Shown here: piece by piece, positions 10,360 through 35,065 of the stretch
Layout: the number at the start of each line of letters is the position of its first letter
How positions within the stretch are numbered: position 1 is the stretch's first letter
Source of the DNA: Escherichia coli
GTDB taxonomy: Bacteria; Pseudomonadota; Gammaproteobacteria; Enterobacterales; Enterobacteriaceae
Assembly: GCF_016026235.1 (NCBI RefSeq)
Contig: NZ_CP065613.1
Strand: one strand, 5' to 3'
DNA: 64,000 bases
The notes under the pieces: generated by a model
The model's input: the letters and a program-made list of their open reading frames with translations, nothing else
Databases searched by the model: none
What the model was told of the DNA's origin: nothing
Made by a program: the position numbers and the translations under genes

Positions 10360-10416
10360 GCATCCGGCATTTAGTTCCTGTCGCCGGATGCGGCTTGAAC
10401 GCCTTATCCGGCCTAC
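10360..10416. repeat. REP/BIME element
   Basis: cgcatccggca followed by gccggatgcggcttgaacgccttatccggcctac between convergent preA and mglC. Confidence 0.75.
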
Positions 10417-23425: not shown

Positions 23426-24475
23426 ATGACGAATATCACCTTACAGAAACAACATCGTACACTGTGGCATTTTATTCTGGGGTTAGCCCTGAGTGCAGTT
23501 ATCACCGGGGTCGCCCTGTGGGGTGGTTCCATTCCCGCGGTTGCGGGTGCCGGGTTTAGTGCCCTCACCCTCGCAATCTTGTTGGGGATGGTTTTAGGCA
23601 ACACCATCTATCCGCACATCTGGAAAAGCTGTGACGGTGGTGTGCTGTTTGCCAAGCAATATTTATTACGTCTGGGTATCATTCTTTATGGCTTCCGTCT
23701 GACGTTCTCGCAAATTGCCGATGTCGGTATCAGTGGGATCATCATTGACGTGTTGACGCTGTCCAGTACCTTCCTGCTGGCTTGCTTCCTGGGGCAGAAA
23801 GTGTTTGGTCTGGATAAGCACACCAGCTGGTTGATCGGTGCCGGTAGCAGTATCTGTGGTGCTGCCGCGGTACTGGCGACTGAGCCGGTAGTGAAAGCGG
23901 AAGCCAGTAAAGTAACCGTGGCTGTTGCAACCGTTGTTATCTTCGGGACCGTCGCGATTTTCCTCTACCCGGCGATATATCCGCTGATGTCTCAATGGGT
24001 TAGTCCGGAAACTTTCGGTATCTACATTGGTTCTACTGTGCACGAAGTGGCGCAGGTGGTGGCGGCAGGTCATGCCATCAGCCCGGATGCAGAAAACGCA
24101 GCAGTTATTTCCAAAATGCTGCGCGTGATGATGCTGGCTCCGTTCCTCATCCTGCTGGCGGCGCGTGTTAAACAGCTGTCTGGGGCGAACAGCGGCGAGA
24201 AAAGCAAAATCACTATTCCGTGGTTTGCCATCTTGTTCATCGTAGTTGCCATCTTTAACTCGTTCCACCTGTTACCGCAGAGCGTGGTGAACATGCTGGT
24301 AACGCTGGATACCTTCCTGCTGGCAATGGCGATGGCGGCGCTGGGTCTGACCACTCACGTCAGCGCGCTGAAAAAAGCCGGGGCGAAACCTCTGCTGATG
24401 GCACTGGTACTGTTTGCCTGGCTGATTGTTGGTGGTGGTGCGATTAACTATGTGATTCAAAGCGTCATCGCATAA
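23426..24475 (+). CDS. yeiH: YeiH, UPF0324 inner-membrane protein
   Basis: 349-aa polytopic ORF; AAGGAGAGGG RBS upstream. Confidence 0.9.
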
Positions 24476-24489
24476 ACCACTACATCTTG

Positions 24490-24541
24490 CTCCTGTTAAC
24501 CCGCTATCATTACCGTTTTCCTCCAGCGGGTTTAACAGGAG
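24490..24541 (+). promoter_or_regulatory. Imperfect 15-bp inverted repeat whose 3' arm contains the nfo Shine-Dalgarno
   Basis: ctcctgttaacccgc (24490-24504) pairs with gcgggtttaacaggag (24526-24541) with one bulge; the SD aggag (24537-24541) is in the stem; nfo ATG at 24549. Confidence 0.45.
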
Positions 24542-24548
24542 TCCTCGC

Positions 24549-25406
24549 ATGAAATACATTGGAGCGCACGTTAGTGCTGCTGGCGGTCTGGCAAATGCCG
24601 CAATTCGCGCCGCCGAAATCGACGCAACCGCGTTTGCCTTGTTCACCAAAAACCAACGTCAGTGGCGTGCCGCACCGCTCACGACGCAAACCATCGATGA
24701 ATTCAAAGCCGCCTGTGAAAAATATCACTACACATCGGCGCAAATTCTTCCCCACGACAGTTATCTGATTAACCTCGGACATCCGGTCACTGAAGCTCTG
24801 GAAAAATCGCGCGATGCCTTTATAGATGAAATGCAGCGTTGCGAACAGCTGGGGCTTTCTTTGCTCAACTTCCACCCTGGCAGCCATCTGATGCAGATTT
24901 CAGAAGAGGATTGCCTTGCGCGTATTGCCGAATCCATCAACATTGCGCTGGATAAAACTCAAGGTGTGACTGCGGTGATTGAAAACACCGCCGGTCAGGG
25001 CAGTAACTTAGGGTTTAAATTCGAACATCTCGCGGCGATTATCGACGGCGTGGAAGATAAATCCCGTGTCGGCGTCTGCATTGATACCTGCCATGCTTTC
25101 GCTGCCGGGTATGATTTGCGTACTCCAGCCGAATGCGAGAAAACGTTCGCTGATTTTGCCCGTATTGTCGGCTTTAAGTATCTGCGCGGGATGCACCTTA
25201 ACGATGCGAAAAGCACCTTTGGCAGCCGCGTTGACCGCCATCATAGCCTCGGTGCAGGCAATATCGGTCATGATGCGTTCCGCTGGATCATGCAGGACGA
25301 CCGTTTCGACGGCATTCCGCTGATCCTTGAAACCATCAACCCGGATATCTGGGCAGAAGAGATCGCCTGGCTGAAAGCGCAACAAACTGAAAAAGCGGTA
25401 GCCTGA
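24549..25406 (+). CDS. nfo: Endonuclease IV (AP endonuclease)
   Basis: 285-aa [26 protein letters not shown]..., TIM-barrel AP endonuclease. Confidence 0.95.
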
Positions 25407-25408
25407 AG

Positions 25409-26497
25409 ATGAATAACCGGGAAAAGGAGATCCTTGCAATTTTACGGCGTAACCCGCTGATTCAGCAGAACGAAATTGCGGACATGCTGCAAATCAGTCG
25501 TTCGCGCGTTGCGGCGCATATTATGGATTTAATGCGCAAAGGCCGGATTAAAGGCAAAGGTTACATTCTCACCGAGCAGGAATACTGCGTAGTGGTGGGG
25601 ACAATCAATATGGATATTCGCGGGATGGCGGATATCCATTACCCACAAGCGGCTTCTCATCCCGGTACAATTCATTGCTCGGCGGGCGGCGTGGGTCGCA
25701 ACATCGCCCACAATCTGGCGCTGTTAGGCCGTGACGTCCATTTGCTTTCAGTGATTGGCGATGACTTTTATGGCGAAATGCTCCTGGAAGAAACGCGCCG
25801 TGCCGGCGTGAATGTCTCCGGCTGCGTTCGTTTGCATGGTCAAAGCACATCGACGTATCTGGCAATTGCCAATCGAGACGATCAAACCGTGCTGGCGATT
25901 AACGATACCCATCTGCTGGAACAGTTGACACCGCAACTACTGAACGGGTCGCGCGATTTACTTCGTCATGCGGGCGTGGTACTGGCTGATTGCAACCTGA
26001 CAGCCGAGGCGCTGGAATGGGTCTTTACCCTCGCTGATGAAATCCCGGTGTTTGTCGATACCGTTTCAGAATTCAAAGCGGGCAAAATCAAACACTGGCT
26101 GGCGCATATTCACACCCTGAAACCCACTTTACCGGAGCTGGAAATTTTATGGGGACAGGCGATCACCAGCGATGCTGACCGTAATGCCGCAGTGAATGCA
26201 TTGCATCAGCAAGGTGTTCAGCAACTGTTTGTTTATTTGCCCGATGAGTCAGTTTATTGCAGCGAAAAGGATGGAGAACAATTTTTGCTGACCGCGCCAG
26301 CGCATACGACAGTAGACAGTTTTGGTGCTGACGATGGTTTTATGGCGGGCCTGGTATATAGCTTTCTTGAAGGATACAGTTTCCGCGACAGCGCCCGTTT
26401 TGCGGTAGCCTGCGCGGCAATTTCGCGCGCCAGCGGCAGCTTAAACAACCCTACCCTGTCTGCCGATAACGCGCTTTCATTAGTGCCAATGGTGTAA
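25409..26497 (+). CDS. yeiI: Uncharacterised HTH-fused PfkB-family carbohydrate/nucleoside kinase YeiI
   Basis: 362-aa ORF with N-terminal winged-HTH-like segment (EILAILRRNPLIQQNEIADMLQISRSRVAAHI) followed by a PfkB ribokinase-like domain (GGVGRNIA); ATG is 2 nt after the nfo stop. Confidence 0.85.
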   Translation: MNNREKEILAILRRNPLIQQNEIADMLQISRSRVAAHIMDLMRKGRIKGKGYILTEQEYCVVVGTINMDIRGMADIHYPQAASHPGTIHCSAGGVGRNIAHNLALLGRDVHLLSVIGDDFYGEMLLEETRRAGVNVSGCVRLHGQSTSTYLAIANRDDQTVLAINDTHLLEQLTPQLLNGSRDLLRHAGVVLADCNLTAEALEWVFTLADEIPVFVDTVSEFKAGKIKHWLAHIHTLKPTLPELEILWGQAITSDADRNAAVNALHQQGVQQLFVYLPDESVYCSEKDGEQFLLTAPAHTTVDSFGADDGFMAGLVYSFLEGYSFRDSARFAVACAAISRASGSLNNPTLSADNALSLVPMV

Positions 26498-26504
26498 CAA
26501 TGTT

Positions 26505-26538
26505 GCCGGATTCGACGCTTGACCGCATCTTATCCGGC
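26505..26538. repeat. REP-like palindrome downstream of nupX
   Basis: gccggattcgacgcttgaccgcatcttatccggc; closely resembles the unit after psuT (29696-29732). Confidence 0.55.
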
Positions 26539-26552
26539 TCATAAATTGCGCA

Positions 26553-27803
26553 CTACGCTAAACCAATAAAGAATCCTGCAATAGTAGCACTCATCAGGTT
26601 AGAAAGTGTCGCCGCCGCCAGCGCGCGTAAACCAAGTTGGGCGATTTCCGGCGCACGGTGTGGCGCAACCGCAGAAAACGCCCCCACCACCACCCCGATA
26701 GAACCAAAGTTAGCGAAACCGCACAACGCGAAAGAAATAATCGCCACGGTTTTAGCATCCAGAGTGCCACCCGTTTGCAGATATGGCGAGAAATTGAGAT
26801 AAGCGATAAATTCATTGATCGCCAGCTTCTGCCCAATCAAACTCTCGGCAAGATTTGCATCACTCCAGTCAACCCCCATCACCCACGCCAATGGGGCCAA
26901 CAGGTAACCTAAAATGGACTCCAGCGAGGCATGTGCAAAACCAAACCAGCCGCCAACGCCGCCGATAATACCATTAATTAACGCAATGATGGCGACAAAT
27001 GCCATAACAACTGTCGCTACACCGGCGGCGATTTTCAGCCCGGTCATTGCCCCTGTCGCAGCGGCTTCAATAATGCTTTTTGGCGGTGTTTCGGTGAAAG
27101 AGAGGTTATTAAAGGAAACCTGCGAAGATTCCGTAGCCGGGCTTAACAGGCGGGCAAACAAGATCCCGCCTGGGATCGCCATTAACGATGCCGCCAGCAA
27201 ATATTCCACAGGTACGCCCAGGGCGGCGTAACCAATCATTGTCGAACCAGCAATCGAGGCCATGCCACTACAAATCGCTGTAAATAATTCATTGCGATTC
27301 AGACGATCGATAAAGGGTTTGACGATCGCCGGAATTTCGTTTTGCCCGAGGAAAATGGTGGTGACCGCGACGAATGACTCAATCTTGCTGATATTTAATG
27401 CTTTCTGGAATATACCGCCGAGAATGCGAATTAAAATCCCCATCACACCGATGTAGTAGAGAATACTCACCAGTGCAGTGACGAAGATAATTACCGGTAA
27501 TACCCTGAAACCAAAGATAAATCCTGCGCCATCAAACAGCGTGTCCATTTTCGGCCCGACCAGCGAACCGAAGATAAATGCGCTACCCGCGTCGCTGTAC
27601 GCCATCACTTTATGCACGCCAAAAGCGACTTTTTCAGCGACCCAACACCCTGGCGGTAACCAAAGCATAATCCCGCCAATCACGACCTGTAACACTAACG
27701 CCGCGCCAACGGTACGCAGGCTGATCTTCTTCTTGTTTACTGACAGTAAAAACGCAATCGTCAGCAATACCACCATTCCCAGAACACTTCTCATGACATC
27801 CAT
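26553..27803 (-). CDS. nupX: Concentrative nucleoside transporter (CNT family) NupX
   Basis: 416-aa ORF; paralog of psuT in this window (most residues identical by eye). Confidence 0.9.
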   Translation of the reverse strand: MDVMRSVLGMVVLLTIAFLLSVNKKKISLRTVGAALVLQVVIGGIMLWLPPGCWVAEKVAFGVHKVMAYSDAGSAFIFGSLVGPKMDTLFDGAGFIFGFRVLPVIIFVTALVSILYYIGVMGILIRILGGIFQKALNISKIESFVAVTTIFLGQNEIPAIVKPFIDRLNRNELFTAICSGMASIAGSTMIGYAALGVPVEYLLAASLMAIPGGILFARLLSPATESSQVSFNNLSFTETPPKSIIEAAATGAMTGLKIAAGVATVVMAFVAIIALINGIIGGVGGWFGFAHASLESILGYLLAPLAWVMGVDWSDANLAESLIGQKLAINEFIAYLNFSPYLQTGGTLDAKTVAIISFALCGFANFGSIGVVVGAFSAVAPHRAPEIAQLGLRALAAATLSNLMSATIAGFFIGLA

Positions 27804-27902
27804 AGTTATTATCTCTTCATGTCATATTGGGCGACGGCTTTCTGCCCCTCAGAAATAGCCGGGCCTGCATCTTGCGATACTGACCCGGCTTGTTATCAAC
27901 AC

Positions 27903-28844
27903 TTAATGGGTTTTGATGTAGCCGCGCACGCACTCTTCGACTAAGCCCCAGAACCAGTCGGTATCAATAGTGATGCCGACTTTGGTATTAGCGGGCTTGC
28001 CAAGAACGCCCAGCTCGTCGCAGACGGTACGCCCATAGCAAGGGCCACTGTTGACGTCCACTTCGACGTACATCTCCTGGGTTTTAATGCCATCAGGGTT
28101 AATCAGATAACCGATGCAGGTGGCGTCGTGCACCGGGCCGCCAGCCAGGCCGTAGTTTTCGAACTGGGTTTTGAGAGTGAAGTTCATGATGTCGCTGAAC
28201 AGCTCTCCGGCAGGGCCGCCTGCCCTTTCCATTCGTGCAATCACGTCCGGGGTGCAAACGGTCTGGTTGGTAAGATCGAGGCCCATCATCACTAATGGAA
28301 CGCCAGAAGTGAACACCACGCGTGCGGCTTCCGGGTCAGCAAAGATGTTGAACTCGGCAGATGGCGTGAAGTTGCCTGTACCGTAAGCGCCGCCCATTAG
28401 CACAATTTCACGAATTTTAGGCAGGATCGCGGGTTGCATACGCATTGCCACCGCGATATTTGAAAGCGGACCAACCGGCACCAGAGTGATATCGCCATCG
28501 CTTGCCATCAGGGTATCAATGATGTATTTCACCGCGTGGGTACTTTCTGCCTGGCGGGTCAGCGGCTCGAATACCGGGCCATCCAGTCCGGTTTCACCGT
28601 GAATATTATCGGCAACGATTTGTTGACGCATAATGGGTTGCGGCATCCCCGCATAAACCGGAACATTAATCTCCAGTTTCTGGCAAACATTCAGGCCATT
28701 AATTAATGTTTTATCAAGCGTCTGATTACCCGCTACAATAGTGATGCCTAATAAATCTATTGCCGGATGTTTCGCTGCCATCATCATTGCAATAGCATCA
28801 TCATGACCCGGATCACAATCCAGAATAATTTTTCTCTTTTCCAT
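27903..28844 (-). CDS. rihB: Pyrimidine-specific ribonucleoside hydrolase
   Basis: 313-aa ORF with the nucleoside hydrolase N-terminal aspartate motif DCDPGHDDA. Confidence 0.9.
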
Positions 28845-29012
28845 TGTTTATTTCCTCTGTTTCCAGTTGCGTTATTTTTTCTACAGCAAAGAAAATTCGA
28901 CCGGGCCGATGATTGAATCTTAACAACAGCGTACGTATGCTAAATATGAGAAATCTCACAGCGGATAAACATCGTGAAAGAAATCCACAATAATGATCTT
29001 AAGCTGCAATTG

Positions 29013-29672
29013 ATGAGTGAATCCGCGTTTAAGGATTGCTTTTTAACGGATGTTTCAGCCGATACGCGGCTGTTTCATTTTTTAGCGCGTGACTACATTG
29101 TGCAGGAAGGGCAACAGCCGTCCTGGCTGTTTTACCTGACGCGAGGCCGCGCCAGGCTTTACGCCACGCTAGCTAATGGTCGCGTGTCGCTGATCGATTT
29201 CTTTGCCGCCCCCTGTTTTATTGGTGAGATTGAGTTAATCGATAAAGACCATGAACCGCGTGCGGTACAGGCTATTGAAGAGTGTTGGTGCCTTGCGCTC
29301 CCTATGAAACATTACCGTCCGCTGTTATTAAACGACACCCTATTTTTACGAAAACTTTGCGTCACCTTAAGTCATAAAAATTATCGTAATATTGTTTCTT
29401 TAACTCAGAATCAATCATTTCCGTTAGTGAATCGCCTGGCAGCATTTATATTACTCTCACAAGAAGGTGATCTTTATCACGAAAAGCATACGCAAGCGGC
29501 AGAGTATTTAGGCGTTTCTTATCGACATCTTTTATATGTTCTCGCGCAATTCATTCACGACGGTTTATTAATTAAAAGCAAGAAAGGATATCTAATTAAA
29601 AACAGAAAGCAGTTGTCAGGGCTGGCGCTGGAGATGGACCCGGAGAATAAATTCTCCGGGATGATGCAGTAA
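29013..29672 (+). CDS. yeiL: CRP/FNR-family transcriptional regulator YeiL
   Basis: ORF 28974..29672 (GTG); conserved start [11 protein letters not shown] at ATG 29013; cNMP-binding-like domain plus C-terminal HTH. Confidence 0.85.
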
Positions 29673-29695
29673 AAATTATTTGCAATAGCGCGATT

Positions 29696-29732
29696 GCCGG
29701 ATACAACGCTTGATGCGTTTTATCCGGTCTAC
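29696..29732. repeat. REP-like palindrome downstream of psuT
   Basis: gccggatacaacgcttgatgcgttttatccggtctac between convergent yeiL and psuT. Confidence 0.55.
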
Positions 29733-29742
29733 AAATTGAGCA

Positions 29743-30993
29743 TTACGCCAGACCAATAAAGAACCCGGCAATGGTCGCGCTCATCAGGTTGGAAAGCGTT
29801 GCTGCTGCCAGCGCCCGTAAACCAAGCTGAGCGATTTCCGGTGCACGTTTTGGCGAAATAGCCGAAAATGCGCCAACGACAACACCGATAGAACCAAAGT
29901 TAGCAAAACCACAAAGCGCAAAGGAGATAATCGCAATGGTTTTCACTTCCAGCGTGCCGCCCGTTTGCAGGTATGGGGAGAAACTCAGGTAAGCGACGAA
30001 TTCGTTAATCGCCAGTTTCTGCCCAATCAGGCTACCCGCAAGGTTGGCATCACTCCAGTCCACACCCATGATCCACGCCAGCGGTGCCAGCACATAGCCA
30101 AAAATACTTTCCAGAGAAGCATTGGTAAAACCAAACCAACCGCCAATTCCGCCGATAATGCCATTAATCAGCGCAATAATTGCGACAAACGCCATTACCA
30201 CCGTCGCCACACCGGCGGCGATTTTCAACCCGGTCATCGCACCGCTCGCCGCCGCTTCGATAAAGCTTTTTGGCGGCGTTTCACTGAACGACAGATTTTC
30301 AAATGTGACCTGCGAAGGCTCGGTTGCCGGACTAAGAATACGTGCAAACAAAATACCGCCGGGGATCGCCATCAGCGATGCCGCCAACAGGTAGTCAATT
30401 GGTACGCCCATTCCGGCATAACCAATCATCATCGAACCCGCAATGGACGCCATCCCGCTACAAATTGCGGTAAACAACTCGTTGCGATTCATGCGATCGA
30501 TAAACGGTTTAACGATCGCCGGGATCTCATTTTGCCCGAGGAAAATAGTAGTAACCGCAACAAAAGATTCGATTTTGCTGATGTTGAGGGCTTTCTGGAA
30601 AATGCTGCCAAGGATGCGAATCAGCAGCCCCATCACGCCAATGTAGTACAGCAGACTGATGAGCGCAGTGACGAAGATAATCGCCGGGAGTACGCGAAAG
30701 GCGAAGATAAAGCCTGCGCCATCAAACAGGACATCCATTTTCGGCCCAACCAGCGAACCAAAAATGAAGGCGCTACCGGCATCACTGTAAGACATCACTT
30801 TATGAACACCTAATGCCGCCTGTTCTACTGCCCATTTTCCCGGCGGAAAATAGAGCATGATGCCACCAATAGCGATTTGCAGCAGCAGTGCGGCTCCAAC
30901 CGTGCGCAAACTGATGCTCTTTTTATTTACCGACAACAGAAATGCTATTGCCAGTAACACCACCATCCCCACAACACTTCTCATTATATCCAT
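29743..30993 (-). CDS. psuT: Putative pseudouridine transporter (CNT family)
   Basis: 416-aa ORF; paralog of nupX. Confidence 0.9.
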   Translation of the reverse strand: MDIMRSVVGMVVLLAIAFLLSVNKKSISLRTVGAALLLQIAIGGIMLYFPPGKWAVEQAALGVHKVMSYSDAGSAFIFGSLVGPKMDVLFDGAGFIFAFRVLPAIIFVTALISLLYYIGVMGLLIRILGSIFQKALNISKIESFVAVTTIFLGQNEIPAIVKPFIDRMNRNELFTAICSGMASIAGSMMIGYAGMGVPIDYLLAASLMAIPGGILFARILSPATEPSQVTFENLSFSETPPKSFIEAAASGAMTGLKIAAGVATVVMAFVAIIALINGIIGGIGGWFGFTNASLESIFGYVLAPLAWIMGVDWSDANLAGSLIGQKLAINEFVAYLSFSPYLQTGGTLEVKTIAIISFALCGFANFGSIGVVVGAFSAISPKRAPEIAQLGLRALAAATLSNLMSATIAGFFIGLA

Positions 30994-31086
30994 AATGATT
31001 TTCCCTTCATGCCAGTAAACCCGGCGTCAGCGCCAGGTTTCGGTATGTATGATCAGTACGGGCGACGGCTTTCTGCCCGTCAGAAA

Positions 31087-32021
31087 TTAACCCGCGAGAC
31101 GCTGATATTCTTTGGCAATTTCGCTCGCCAGAATGGCGTTGTTGAACACCAGCTGGATGTTGGATTTCAGGCTGTCACCGCCGGTCAGCTCAGCAACGCG
31201 CGCCAGCAGGAATGGCGTACTTTCTTTACCAATAACACCCTGCGCTTCAGCTTCAGCTACCGCCTGATCGCCGCATTGATAGTGTGTTCCGGCATAGCAA
31301 ACTGTTCCGGGATCGGGTTCGCTACCACGAGGCCACCGTTCAGCCCGCTTTGCCATTTCACCGCCATTGCACGGGCAATTTCGCTGGCGCTGTCGAGACG
31401 AATGCTGACGTCAAACGGGCTGGTACGGCAGAAAAACGCAGGCAGCGCTTTAGTCTGATAGCCAATTAACGGCACACCGAAGGTTTCTAAATACTCAGTG
31501 GTTAATCCTAAATCGAGAATAGATTTCGCCCCGGCACAAACAACGGTGACATTAGTATTTGCCAGTTCTTGCAAATCGGCAGAAATATCGAAGGTATGTT
31601 CCGCCCCGCGATGAACACCACCAATTCCCCCGGTGGCAAATACTTTAATTCCGGCAAGCGCCGCAATAATCATCGTTGAAGCCACAGTGGTTGCGCCATT
31701 TTTTCCGGCGGCAACAACAAAAGGTAAATCGCGACGACTAACTTTGGTCACGTTATGCCCTTCACGACCCAGTAATTCAATTTCTTCTTTGCTTAAACCC
31801 ACTTTCATCACGCCACCAATAATGGCGATAGTGGCAGGTACTGCGCCCTGTTTACGAATAGTTTCTTCAACTTCAATTGCGGTCTGGGCATTTTGTGGGA
31901 ACGGCATCCCGTGAGAAATAATGGTCGATTCCAGCGCCACAACCGGTTTTTTGTTTTTTAAAGCGTCCTGCACTTCCGGGGAAATTTGTAATAATTCAGG
32001 GGAAATTTTTAATTCAGACAT
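31087..32021 (-). pseudogene. psuG: Pseudouridine-5'-phosphate glycosidase with a disrupted reading frame
   Basis: N-terminal 252 residues in ORF 31257..32021 (ends ...PEHTINAAIRR*); conserved C-terminal 60 residues DQAVAEAEAQG...EYQRLAG are in another frame (ORF 31087..31356). Frames meet at plus 31261-31274 cgcctgatcgccgc. Confidence 0.75.
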
Positions 32022-32950
32022 TCTGCGTTCTCCACTAACGATATAACGTTGGCAATCGATAAATCGGGGTTATTGGTGTATTCACAGGAGAGCGCCATTG
32101 ACGAACATCCCTGTGCGAAACGAACAGATTCGGCAAACGGCATTCCGTCTACCCAACACGAAGCAAGTCCCGCCATCATGGCATCGCCCGCTCCGGTAAC
32201 ATTAATAACATTGGTTTTGATCGAGGCAGACCAGCCACTTTCACCGCTGATTTCACTGTAATAAACGCCATCGCCGCCCATGCTCAATACCAATCGGTTC
32301 AGGCCATGTTGATGGAACCAGGCAGCAACTTTTGCCACATCTTCACGCCCTGACAGCGCAATCCCACTCAGTGTTTCCGCTTCAAGGCGGTTTGGCTTGA
32401 GAGTATGGATTTGACTTAATCGCTCGCGTACTTTGACGCATTTCCACGCGGAAACCGGATCGACAAATACGGGTACGTTGGCAGCATTATCCAGAATCCA
32501 TGCCAGTGCCTCTTCACTGATATTACAGTCCGCGACAATGACCTTTGCCCTCTGAATAAATTCACGGTGCTGTGCGAGATATTCAGCTGTAATAGCGTTG
32601 CTAATATTCATGTCATTTATAGCAACCAGCATTTCACCAGTATTATCGAGTAATGATAAATAGCTCGACGTATTTTCTCCCGGCACAATCAGGCATTTAT
32701 CGACATAAACGCCAGATTGATTGGTTTGCGTTAGCAGCGATTGGCCATAAAAATCACTGCCTACGGCGCTCAGTAGCCAGGCTTTATTACCCAGCAACGC
32801 CAGGTTTTGTGCAATATTGCGCCCTACCCCACCAGGCGTAAATTTTATTTTACCTGGATTTGAATCCGCATAATTTAATGATTCATGTGAATATCCGGCG
32901 ACATCAATATTCGCCGAGCCTATAATTACGACATAATCCTTTTCGCGCAT
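32009..32950 (-). CDS. psuK: Pseudouridine kinase (PfkB family)
   Basis: 313-aa ORF MREKDYVVIIGSANIDVAGY... with GGVGRNIA motif; overlaps the psuG start by 13 nt. Confidence 0.9.
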   Translation of the reverse strand: MREKDYVVIIGSANIDVAGYSHESLNYADSNPGKIKFTPGGVGRNIAQNLALLGNKAWLLSAVGSDFYGQSLLTQTNQSGVYVDKCLIVPGENTSSYLSLLDNTGEMLVAINDMNISNAITAEYLAQHREFIQRAKVIVADCNISEEALAWILDNAANVPVFVDPVSAWKCVKVRERLSQIHTLKPNRLEAETLSGIALSGREDVAKVAAWFHQHGLNRLVLSMGGDGVYYSEISGESGWSASIKTNVINVTGAGDAMMAGLASCWVDGMPFAESVRFAQGCSSMALSCEYTNNPDLSIANVISLVENAECLN

Positions 32951-33017
32951 AGCACGTCCTCTGGTAAAAAATTACCAACCCTGTCAATCCACAAGAATAT
33001 AGATACTGCAAAGACGG

Positions 33018-33053
33018 TTTAAACATGTGTTCATATTTAAACATGTGCTCATA
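33018..33053. repeat. Tandem 18-bp direct repeat upstream of psuK
   Basis: tttaaacatgtgttcata (33018-33035) immediately repeated as tttaaacatgtgctcata (33036-33053), 17/18 identical; a third gcatgt follows at 33058-33063. Confidence 0.6.
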
Positions 33054-33190
33054 GTATGCATGTTTTACGTAAAGTAAATTGCCGCCAGAGAGGCAAAGCG
33101 GGCAGATTTGAGCAGGCTCACAAAATGCGATTAAATGCCAGAATTACAAAAGCGAGGAATTTGTGACGGGATGCACAGAACATGAACACT

Positions 33191-33216
33191 AAAAAAGGGC
33201 AGAAAAGAATCTGCCC
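33191..33216 (-). terminator. Rho-independent terminator, probably ending the fruBKA transcript
   Basis: Minus strand GGGCAGA-ttcttt-TCTGCCC followed by TTTTTT (plus-strand A tract 33191-33196), about 160 nt past the fruA stop. Confidence 0.55.
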
Positions 33217-33373
33217 TTGAGGAAATAACCTTAGTGTTTGATGAACGTTTCAGGTTTCTACTGAAAGATAAAACCATTTAAATTCATAAAATTACATTCA
33301 CAAACCGGTCATTCTCTTTGCGCTCATCCAATGATACAGGGCAGTAAATTTCTGCCCTGTAACACACCTTTTA

Positions 33374-35065
33374 TTACGCGGCTTTCGCTACTGCGTCCAC
33401 TTCCGGACGTTTCAGGAAGGCATAGGCCAAACCCGCCACCAGCGTACCGGCAATAATTGCTACCAGGTAACCCAGTACCGGCGTAATAGCGCCAGGGATC
33501 AGCAGAACAAACAGACCACCGTGCGGTGCCATCAGTTTCGCACCAATCGCCATTGAGATTGCGCCAGTCAGCGCCCCACCAACGATACAACACGGCAGCA
33601 CACGCATCGGATCACGAGCAGCAAACGGAATTGCACCTTCCGAAATAAAGCACAGACCAAGAACCAGAGCGGCTTTGCCACCTTCCTGCTGCGCTTTGTC
33701 AAATTTGCGACGCGCCACCATTGTTGCCAGACCCATTGCCAGCGGTGGCACCATACCTGCTGCCATAATCGCCGCCATCGGGCCATAGGTTTGAGTACTC
33801 AGCAGACCCACACCGAATGCGTACGCTGCTTTATTTACCGGACCGCCCATGTCAGTACACATCATGCCACCGAGGATCGCCCCCAGCAGAACCGCATTCG
33901 CAGTCCCCATGGTCTGCAGCCAGTGAGTCAACCCTTCGAGAATGCCAGCAACCGGTTTACCGATCAGGTAGATCATCGCCAGACCGACCACCAGACTGGA
34001 AATTAGCGGAATGATCAGGATCGGTTTCAGCGCCTCCATACTCTGTGGCAGTTTCAGTTGCGTACTGATTAACTTCGCAATGTAACCAGCCAGGAAGCCC
34101 GCAATAATACCGCCAATGAAGCCAGAACCGGTGCTGACCGCCAGCATACCGCCAATCAGACCCGGCGTGAGACCCGGACGATCGGCAATGGAGAAGGCAA
34201 TGTAACCTGCCAGTACCGGCACCATCAGCGCAAAGGCTGAACCACCACCAATCTGCATCAGCGCCGCTGCCAACGTACCCGGCTCTTTAAACGCTTCGAT
34301 ACCAAAAGCAAAAGAAAGCGCGATACACAGACCACCTGCAACGACCATCGGCAGCATGTAAGAGACGCCCGTCAGCAAGTGACGGTATGCGCCTGCACTC
34401 TCTTTCTTACCTTCAGAGGTCGCCGTTTGAGCTTTGCCCACCGGTTCATACGGCGTTGCTTCAGCAACCGCTTTATCCAGTTCCTGCGCGGTTTTCTTCA
34501 GCGCCAGACCGGTAGAGGTACGATACATCGGTTTACCAGCAAATTTTGCCAGATCCACTTCGATATCTGCCGCCACAATCACCAGATCCGCTGCGACTAC
34601 TTCTTCGGGAGTGATTGCATTACCCGCGCCAACAGAACCACGGGTTTCAACTTTCACCCACCAGCCACGTTTTTTCGCTTCGGTTTCAATGGCTTCAGCC
34701 GCCATAAAGGTGTGTGCTACGCCAGTCGGGCAAGCAGTCACCGCAACTACGCGTTTCGGACCGCTGGCGGCAACCGGTGCTGTCGCAGCGACCGGCGCAG
34801 TGTAAGGTTTCGCATGGCCTTTGGCTTCACTCAGGAACAGCTCAGGGTGCGCAACTGCCCGGGAAATATCGCCCAGCCAGACATTTTTACCGTTCAGCGC
34901 GCTGTCATTCGGGATGGAATCACCGAGAACAATCGCCATTTCTGCGTCGTTCGGATTGTCGATGATTTCCAGTTTTGCTTTTCGCGCCGCCGCGCCCAGC
35001 AGGGTCTTCGCCATATAGGCGCGTGCCTGACCGAGATTAGCGTCAATAATCAGCAGCGTTTTCAT
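33374..35065 (-). CDS. fruA: PTS fructose-specific EIIB'BC component
   Basis: 563-aa ORF MKTLLIIDANLGQARAYMAKTLL... with EIIB cysteine (VTACPTGVAHT) and a polytopic EIIC domain. Confidence 0.95.
   Translation of the reverse strand: MKTLLIIDANLGQARAYMAKTLLGAAARKAKLEIIDNPNDAEMAIVLGDSIPNDSALNGKNVWLGDISRAVAHPELFLSEAKGHAKPYTAPVAATAPVAASGPKRVVAVTACPTGVAHTFMAAEAIETEAKKRGWWVKVETRGSVGAGNAITPEEVVAADLVIVAADIEVDLAKFAGKPMYRTSTGLALKKTAQELDKAVAEATPYEPVGKAQTATSEGKKESAGAYRHLLTGVSYMLPMVVAGGLCIALSFAFGIEAFKEPGTLAAALMQIGGGSAFALMVPVLAGYIAFSIADRPGLTPGLIGGMLAVSTGSGFIGGIIAGFLAGYIAKLISTQLKLPQSMEALKPILIIPLISSLVVGLAMIYLIGKPVAGILEGLTHWLQTMGTANAVLLGAILGGMMCTDMGGPVNKAAYAFGVGLLSTQTYGPMAAIMAAGMVPPLAMGLATMVARRKFDKAQQEGGKAALVLGLCFISEGAIPFAARDPMRVLPCCIVGGALTGAISMAIGAKLMAPHGGLFVLLIPGAITPVLGYLVAIIAGTLVAGLAYAFLKRPEVDAVAKAA

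Follow-up and report, generated by a model that had tools for sequence, protein, structure and literature searches.

The nupX and psuT transporter genes of Escherichia coli: an old direct repeat with probable concerted evolution and rare natural deletions

A stretch of 64,000 nucleotides of the E. coli contig NZ_CP065613.1 (assembly GCF_016026235.1), referred to here as the window, carries between nfo and fruA a group of nucleoside-utilisation genes in which two related transporter genes, nupX and psuT, stand in direct repeat on either side of rihB and yeiL. Comparison of this locus with complete E. coli genomes and with other genera has shown that the repeats recombine in nature to remove the genes between them, and the locus is very probably the outcome of an old duplication of a single gene, the copies of which have evolved in concert and are from time to time joined by a crossover deletion. 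A preliminary description made from the sequence of the window had read the locus as two copies of one salvage module, and its claims are taken up below where the evidence bears on them.

Genes and features of the locus

The genes and features from nfo to psuK are as follows.

24549-25406, plus strand: nfo, an open reading frame (ORF) of the window that agrees with the RefSeq annotation of matching genomes
25409..26497, plus strand: yeiI, with Pfam HTH_24 at residues 1-48 and PfkB at 58-348 (NCBIfam YeiI equivalog, 813 bits)
26505..26538, minus strand: palindrome gccggattcgacgcttgaccgcatcttatccggc of the repetitive extragenic palindromic (REP) type, 14 nt past the nupX stop in the convergent yeiI/nupX gap
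26553..27803, minus strand: nupX (yeiJ), a 416-aa concentrative nucleoside transporter (CNT), direct-repeat copy 1 (TIGR00804, 492 bits)
27829..27856, minus strand: 28-nt box, nupX copy, in the rihB-nupX spacer, a 27/28 match to the psuT copy
27857..27890, minus strand: strong hairpin directly after the rihB stop (-24.4 kcal/mol, z -5.3)
27903..28844, minus strand: rihB (yeiK), pyrimidine nucleoside hydrolase (Pfam IU_nuc_hydro; NCBIfam ribosylpyrimidine nucleosidase, 728 bits)
28946..28959, no strand assigned: palindrome ATGAGAAATCTCAC, candidate YeiL operator on the strength of its conservation, in the divergent yeiL-rihB spacer
28974..29672, plus strand: yeiL, CRP/FNR-family regulator, divergent from rihB-nupX (Pfam cNMP_binding and HTH_Crp_2; NCBIfam YeiL, 416 bits)
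29696..29732, minus strand: REP-type palindrome gccggatacaacgcttgatgcgttttatccggt(ctac) with a GTAG tail, 10-14 nt past the psuT stop in the convergent yeiL/psuT gap
29743..30993, minus strand: psuT (yeiM), 416-aa CNT transporter, direct-repeat copy 2 (TIGR00804, 518 bits)
31008..31047, minus strand: terminator-like hairpin in the psuG-psuT spacer, a consensus fold of 12 species or alleles
31060..31087, minus strand: 28-nt box, psuT copy, abutting the psuG stop codon, a 27/28 match to the nupX copy
31087..32021, minus strand: psuG (yeiN), pseudouridine-5'-phosphate glycosidase, a frameshifted pseudogene (Pfam Indigoidine_A)
32009..32950, minus strand: psuK (yeiC), pseudouridine kinase, intact with 313 aa (NCBIfam pseudouridine kinase, 710 bits; Pfam PfkB)

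The window ORFs match the RefSeq annotation of matching genomes, fruA follows psuK, and the strand pattern from yeiI to psuK is + - - + - - -. The closest complete E. coli genome is FDAARGOS_943 (L003), which is 99.7% identical to the window, most others being 95-98% identical; in this relative an IS5 element lies in psuG, and psuK has an internal stop. In gene content, gene order, orientation and product names it agrees with the yeiI-nupX-rihB-yeiL-psuT-psuG-psuK locus of E. coli K-12, from which the window differs in its frameshifted psuG and in a short yeiI-nupX spacer of 55 nt, and the window nupX is ~95% identical to the K-12-type allele. This is the long-annotated nucleoside-utilisation locus of E. 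coli, the paralogy of which has already been published (PMC11241209, PMC9061257), and the conserved leader and the candidate operator treated below are the only leads with some novelty, and that mild. The genes rihB-nupX with yeiL are a predicted unit of pyrimidine-nucleoside uptake and hydrolysis, and psuKGT is the pseudouridine catabolic operon. The assignment of psuG as a glycosidase gene in the preliminary description is right as to family; in the window, however, the frame is broken by a 4-nt deletion (GATCGATC>GATC at 31269/31270) that removes one GATC of a repeat present in intact alleles and shortens the ORF from 312 aa to 254 aa. In the lineage of the window, the pseudouridine pathway seems to be in decay.

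Extent and age of the transporter duplication

NupX and PsuT had been described as CNT paralogs of 416 aa encoded on the same strand and alike at the DNA level, and both this and their coordinates stand. The proteins are identical at 365 of 416 residues (87.7%) and the genes at 977 of 1251 bases (78.1%), both alignments being free of gaps. Both proteins contain all three Pfam domains Nucleos_tra2_N, Gate and Nucleos_tra2_C, and both exceed the TIGR00804 cut-off of 442 bits, placing them in the CNT family. NupX and PsuT form one CNT clade, to which NupC does not belong; uptake of uridine and cytidine by NupX is weak, PsuT transported neither of these nor xanthosine, uptake of pseudouridine by PsuT has been assumed from the operon context, and of these transporters Citrobacter freundii has only NupC and PsuT (PMC11241209).

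The direct repeat found by a repeat finder has a register of 3190/3191 nt, which runs through the genes into their 3' flanks. At the 3' side, homology between the copies ends ~50 nt beyond each stop codon. At the 5' side, it covers ~20 nt preceding the ATG and then, after a 41-nt stretch found only in front of psuT, the 28-nt box, a shared element additional to those in the preliminary description. Upstream of the box no alignment is obtained, the rihB-distal hairpin lying on the nupX side and psuG coding sequence on the psuT side. From these limits it follows that one gene with short flanks has been repeated, and the unit, ~1.35-1.4 kb long, consists of the coding sequence with a leader box on its 5' side and a hairpin or REP on its 3' side. 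Its two copies are in direct orientation, 1.9 kb apart, and flank rihB and yeiL.

Third codon positions of nupX and psuT are only 51% identical, and the Nei-Gojobori estimates are 1.55 (saturated) for synonymous divergence (dS) and 0.079 for nonsynonymous divergence (dN), giving a dN/dS of ~0.05. Both copies are under strong purifying selection. The 28-nt box and the flanks are kept far better than synonymous sites, and therefore they are either constrained or copied between the paralogs. The duplication itself would be old, predating the split of Escherichia, Citrobacter, Kluyvera, Yokenella and Phytobacter.

Natural deletions between the repeats

A synthetic query joining nfo-yeiI to psuG-psuK, which matches as one place only if more than 2.2 kb have been lost between the two parts, was searched against 5,426 complete E. 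coli genomes. Five genomes have the arrangement nfo-yeiI-[one transporter]-psuG-psuK, from which rihB-yeiL is gone. In each of them a single intact coding sequence of 416 aa lies between yeiI and psuG. Read at 205 fixed diagnostic sites, four of the five hybrids change once, from psuT type to nupX type, and in the fifth (L008) a lone psuT-type site follows the change. The best-fit breakpoints lie at gene positions 924-947, 964-977, 1083-1088, 1194-1251 (L007) and 756-767; since all five differ, the deletions are five independent events. The first hybrid (L004) is a zero-mismatch chimera of the nupX and psuT alleles of another E. coli haplotype (L010), and its breakpoint falls within a 23-nt block of identity between these alleles. 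One repeat period has been lost, the hybrid is in frame, and the breakpoints are inside identity blocks: the recombinants are the product of unequal homologous recombination between the direct repeats. The preliminary description had pointed to the repeats as a substrate for deletion, and five natural genomes without rihB-yeiL, each with one psuT/nupX hybrid, bear this out.

These observations lead to a model in which the copies, being in direct repeat, would keep interacting by gene conversion and unequal crossover. A rare crossover removes 3.19 kb, consisting of the 5' part of nupX, rihB, yeiL and the 3' part of psuT, and the product is one in-frame hybrid adjoining yeiI, with its 5' part from psuT and its 3' part from nupX. 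Textbook cases of concerted evolution and unequal crossover are the conversion of tufA and tufB in Salmonella and the deletions mediated by rrn operons or insertion sequences (IS). As in events of the tufA/tufB type and in those mediated by rrn or IS, conversion tracts are found amid diverged sequence at nupX/psuT, and as in other systems of directly repeated paralogs, deletions here leave an in-frame hybrid with breakpoints in short blocks of identity. Unlike the textbook repeats, nupX and psuT are only 78% identical, and their longest identical run in most E. coli alleles is 20-38 nt. A length of 20-38 nt is near the minimum for RecA-mediated exchange, and accordingly the events are rare (5 in 5,426 genomes).

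A separate large deletion is present in E. coli CUPS04 (L002, 4001-5803), where it extends from the 3' part of yeiI to the 3' end of psuK. It leaves a truncated yeiI overlapping an extended psuK, and it is not repeat-mediated.

Concerted evolution of the two copies

Within genomes that carry the full array, nupX and psuT are 78-88% identical at the DNA level, which is often at least as high as the identity of orthologs across genera. The longest identical runs between the two genes are 116 nt in Citrobacter amalonaticus, 80 nt in Phytobacter and 57 nt in Yokenella. Within E. coli, one haplotype (L014) has an identical tract of 137 nt at gene positions 1078-1214, the maximum in the window being 20 nt, and in that haplotype the two genes agree in 45 of their 52 final codons, compared with 26 of 49 conserved-residue codons in the window. 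Tracts of this kind point to gene conversion that homogenises the copies, mostly in the 3' third of the gene.

A phylogeny of CNT paralogs had been put forward as a check on the duplication, and in neighbour-joining (NJ) trees, read without branch-support values, NupX and PsuT do not fall into two clean clades. The lack of clean clades is expected if the copies exchange sequence.

Layouts in other genera and the possibility of an inserted trio

Three layouts at the nfo-fruA site came to light in a scan of genomes representing species and in eight look-ups of gene context.

Full array, yeiI-nupX-rihB-yeiL-psuT-psuG-psuK: E. coli, Citrobacter amalonaticus, Kluyvera, Yokenella, Phytobacter
nupX trio only, nupX-rihB-yeiL: Buttiauxella, Salmonella enterica arizonae
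Single transporter, yeiI-psuT-psuG-psuK: E. albertii, three species of the C. freundii group, Leclercia

The single transporter gene of E. albertii is of psuT type to about position 1203 and of nupX type at its extreme 3' end and flank. We think that in E. albertii, the C. freundii group and Leclercia the single-transporter layout goes back to a deletion of the kind seen within E. coli.

A different history starts from an ancestral nfo-yeiI/psuT-psuG-psuK locus, next to the psuT of which a mobile yeiL-rihB-nupX trio was inserted, perhaps through transporter homology. The trio does occur alone, both at the nfo-fruA site in Buttiauxella and S. enterica arizonae and at unrelated sites in Hafnia alvei and Superficieibacter; the nearest YeiL beyond E. 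coli is just ~76% identical; and the resemblance of the 3' end and flank of E. albertii psuT to E. coli nupX is also what Campbell-type integration predicts. However, the full array has the same order, orientation and site in five genera, so that the same insertion would have had to happen repeatedly, or the locus to be transferred as a whole, and the deletion has been observed directly five times in E. coli, each time yielding exactly the single-transporter layout. An insertion of the trio is therefore unlikely as the account of these layouts. A narrower form of it, an insertion confined to E. coli, as E. albertii, Citrobacter and Leclercia had suggested, was dropped because the full array is present in four other genera.

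Several points count against duplication followed by deletion. The duplication cannot be dated from the NJ trees, as NupX and PsuT are not split into clean clades in them; the direction of layout change comes from parsimony over ~15 genomes and not from a dated tree; the single genes of Citrobacter gave no clear hybrid signature at diagnostic sites taken from C. amalonaticus and Kluyvera, a comparison that was uninformative; and, given the lone trios of Hafnia alvei and Superficieibacter, an ancient insertion of the trio beside psuT is a possible origin of the array itself.

Two relatives of the trio differ from it in detail. In S. enterica subsp. arizonae (L095, 4460-7000), nupX is split into ORFs of 350 aa and 64 aa, the yeiL-rihB spacer contains an insert of ~120 nt, and yeiI and psuTGK are absent at the locus. 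In Enterococcus malodoratus (L100, 2797-6672), a YeiL homolog with 57% identity is divergent from a hydrolase operon consisting of genes for an IU-nucleoside hydrolase, a PfkB kinase and a Bmp-type nucleoside ABC transporter, and therefore the pairing of YeiL with a hydrolase crosses phyla.

The REP palindromes behind the two genes

A related REP-type palindrome closely 3' of each transporter gene had been noted before and is confirmed: the two lie in the same register, behind spacers of ~14 nt, and have GCCGGAT...ATCCGG arms, which are also those of the canonical window REPs at 10383, 63655 and 63723. They are imperfect palindromes of ~30-35 nt with GCCGGAT/ATCCGGC arms and lie outside genes, as REPs do. 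The nupX REP folds with -21.9 kcal/mol (z -3.7) and the psuT REP with -17.7 kcal/mol (z -2.6), and the latter has a sub-threshold Rfam match to the REP-derived naRNA4 (30 bits, against a gathering score of 59.5). The spacers between stop codon and REP are alike, TGCGCAATTTATGA and TGCTCAATTTGTAG being identical at 10 of 14 positions and at 8 of the leading nine. A conserved GTAG tetranucleotide next to the palindrome is known from the literature on REP-associated transposases. It is present at the psuT REP (CTAC on the plus strand, 29729-29732), and at the nupX REP its place is taken by ATGA. Both elements resemble the REPs and bacterial interspersed mosaic elements (BIMEs) of E. coli, ~33-nt imperfect palindromes at the 3' ends of convergent genes, and the psuT copy does so in its GTAG tail as well; unlike BIME pairs, each of the two REPs of the locus is single in the window, and the nupX copy has ATGA for GTAG.

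Other genera with the full array have GCGCCAG...CTGGCGC terminator hairpins, and no REPs, after one or both transporter genes, and therefore the E. coli REP pair is younger than the duplication. The earlier proposal that the duplication took in the 3' flank thus holds for the homology extending ~50 nt past the stops; the REP pair itself is unlikely to stem from the original duplication. We argue instead that one REP was probably copied from the other by exchange of the 3' ends, because the two share both register and spacer. Independent insertion of a common REP type at each gene, with no copying along with the gene, is improbable by comparison. It would fit the abundance of REPs, their preference for 3' ends between convergent genes and the canonical copies elsewhere in the window, as well as the terminator hairpins or other REP flavours at these positions in other genera with the full array. 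It fits less well with the common register, from which the REPs depart by a single 1-nt indel relative to the gene alignment, with the likeness of the 14-nt spacers in front of them, above all in the nine leading positions, or with the finding that exchange reaches the stop codon and flank, as in the L007 hybrid (breakpoint 1194-1251) and in E. albertii.

The yeiI-nupX spacer exists as two haplotypes in E. coli, one of 55 nt, as in the window, and one of 106 nt, seen among L010, L004, L006, L008 and L014. The longer one has 51 extra nt between the nupX stop and the REP, together with a different stop codon.

The kinases and the question of a duplicated module

YeiI and PsuK form a second pair of related proteins, as had been proposed, and the relationship within the PfkB family is real but distant, with 120 of 309 residues identical (39%). 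Relative to PsuK, YeiI has an extra N-terminal winged-helix domain (HTH_24). The best PDB match of YeiI is E. coli PsuK (7vkp, E 4e-67), and each kinase has the NCBIfam family of the other as its second best (258 bits for YeiI, 265 bits for PsuK), ribokinase scoring lower at 103 and 134 bits. YeiI stays under the cut-off of the pseudouridine-kinase equivalog (NF007355, 258 bits against 540) and belongs to an equivalog of its own (NF007416, 813 bits). In a published tree it is grouped with the pseudouridine kinases, as an uncharacterised protein, and the hallmark residues Ser30, Asn143, Lys170 and catalytic Asp256 (PMC9061257) are kept in YeiI as S83, N196, K223 and D309. The anion-hole motif is GADD in YeiI (residues 308-309) and GAGD in PsuK. 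The GADD motif and the winged-helix domain, in a protein that keeps the hallmark residues, suggest that YeiI may serve in sensing or regulation and not simply as a kinase.

The preliminary description had gone further and seen in the locus two diverged copies of one salvage module, an ancestral kinase-transporter-hydrolase unit having been duplicated whole to give yeiI-nupX-rihB and psuT-psuG-psuK. Two of the three component types are indeed paralogous (transporters 88%, kinases 39%), the kinases are reciprocal nearest NCBIfam families, and in Enterococcus the YeiL homolog adjoins an operon of hydrolase, PfkB kinase and nucleoside transporter, which makes such a unit a real design. The hydrolytic enzymes, however, are not homologous: RihB is of the IU_nuc_hydro family and PsuG of the Indigoidine_A family, and these Pfam families are unrelated, which largely refutes a duplication of the whole unit (another non-homologous pair at the locus, RihB and PsuK, gives a negative score in global alignment). 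Nor are the supposed copies collinear in order or orientation, since yeiI is read from the other strand at the far end and the kinases stand convergent at the opposite outer ends, and DNA homology is restricted to ~1.35-1.4 kb comprising each transporter and its short flanks. The unequal divergence of transporters (88%) and kinases (39%) implies separate events, and nupX-rihB-yeiL occurs without yeiI in Buttiauxella and S. enterica arizonae, the converse, yeiI without nupX-rihB, being known as well. A duplication of the whole module is thus very unlikely. The regulator gene yeiL would not be a neutral spacer between two modules but a partner of rihB-nupX, because this trio recurs in other genera and the pairing of yeiL with a hydrolase gene even in Enterococcus.

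The conserved leader and a candidate YeiL operator

The 28-nt box upstream of both transporter genes occurs twice in the window, against 0 occurrences expected. Its core GGGCAGAAAGCCGTCGCCC at 27829-27847 can form a short stem with a conserved loop of 11 nt. The 19-nt core consensus YGGGCAG-N3-GCSGTCGCCCR has 39 occurrences in 1.57 Mb of collected sequence, all of them just upstream of genes of NupX/PsuT type. In 24 aligned sequences, 93% of the cells of the 5-6-bp core stem pair, compared with 88.6 +/- 1.3% after shuffling, a value reached by 0 of 500 shuffles, and three pairs are altered on both sides. Covariation lends the stem moderate support, limited by the relatedness of the sequences and the invariance of the loop. 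A TTTCTG-N5-CAGAAA palindrome within the box was considered as an operator and rejected, since a B2-type E. coli allele (TTTATG...CAGAGA) and other genera are without it; the GGGC/GCCC stem is kept where this palindrome is lost. The ATG of 'ATGGGCAG' was also considered as the start of a small upstream ORF, which was rejected because this ATG is missing in psuT leaders and in the nupX leader of the window.

Upstream of each gene there is also a hairpin that the other copy lacks. The one in the psuT leader (31008-31047) is near-invariant, folds with -30.8 kcal/mol (z -2.4) and lies within the 41-nt stretch that the nupX leader lacks. The one at 27857-27890 is specific to the nupX copy and lies outside the repeat, and by alignment nothing comparable is found upstream of psuT. 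A search of positions 24000-34000 against Rfam at a permissive threshold left the leader unmatched and returned only a sub-threshold REP-related match, and a scan for promoter and terminator consensus sequences found sites no more numerous than in shuffled sequence.

A second conserved element, the palindrome ATGAG-N4-CTCAT (ATGAGAAATCTCA(C/T)) with the 5-N4-5 spacing of FNR-like sites, precedes the yeiL start by ~15-25 nt. It is invariant at nine Enterobacterales loci and is also found before the Enterococcus yeiL homolog (loci L094-L101, L023), and the copy at 28946-28959 is the sole one near the locus. It is a plausible candidate for the YeiL operator. More tentatively, the shared leader may be a cis-regulatory RNA that makes expression of the transporter independent of the enzyme genes upstream of it, whether through attenuation, processing or stabilisation, which we regard as possible but doubtful, and it could act together with YeiL, through ATGAG-N4-CTCAT, and with the winged-helix protein YeiI.

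Loss of nupX and divergent haplotypes in E. coli

In 975 E. coli records, ST131 (sequence type 131) included, the best match of nupX is psuT at ~79%, and ~18% of complete genomes are without an intact nupX. In one representative of these, E. coli S4 (L001, 2590-2856), a frame-shifting internal deletion of 1138 bp, unrelated to psuT, has spared 46 nt at the 3' end of nupX and ~67 nt at its 5' end. E. coli GABEEC10 (L012) and S4 share a deeply divergent form of the locus, with ~89.6% identity to the window across 7.5 kb and 88.8% in psuT. Other E. coli alleles are farther from E. albertii than this haplotype, and divergence of this degree is unusually high within the species.

Implications

The overall significance of these findings is modest, as the genes and their paralogy are textbook annotation and the biology is ordinary, with no new system. 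For users of pan-genomes and metabolic models, it is of use that ~18% of E. coli are without nupX, that a few carry a psuT/nupX hybrid, and that the pseudouridine pathway is broken in some lineages, that of the window included. Two poorly understood regulators could be approached cheaply through the conserved leader and the candidate YeiL operator, both of which are testable. The locus provides a clean natural case of direct repeats that are 78% identical and still convert and delete, and deletion between them would be a simple explanation for the patchy distribution of rihB-yeiL-nupX among Escherichia and Citrobacter species.

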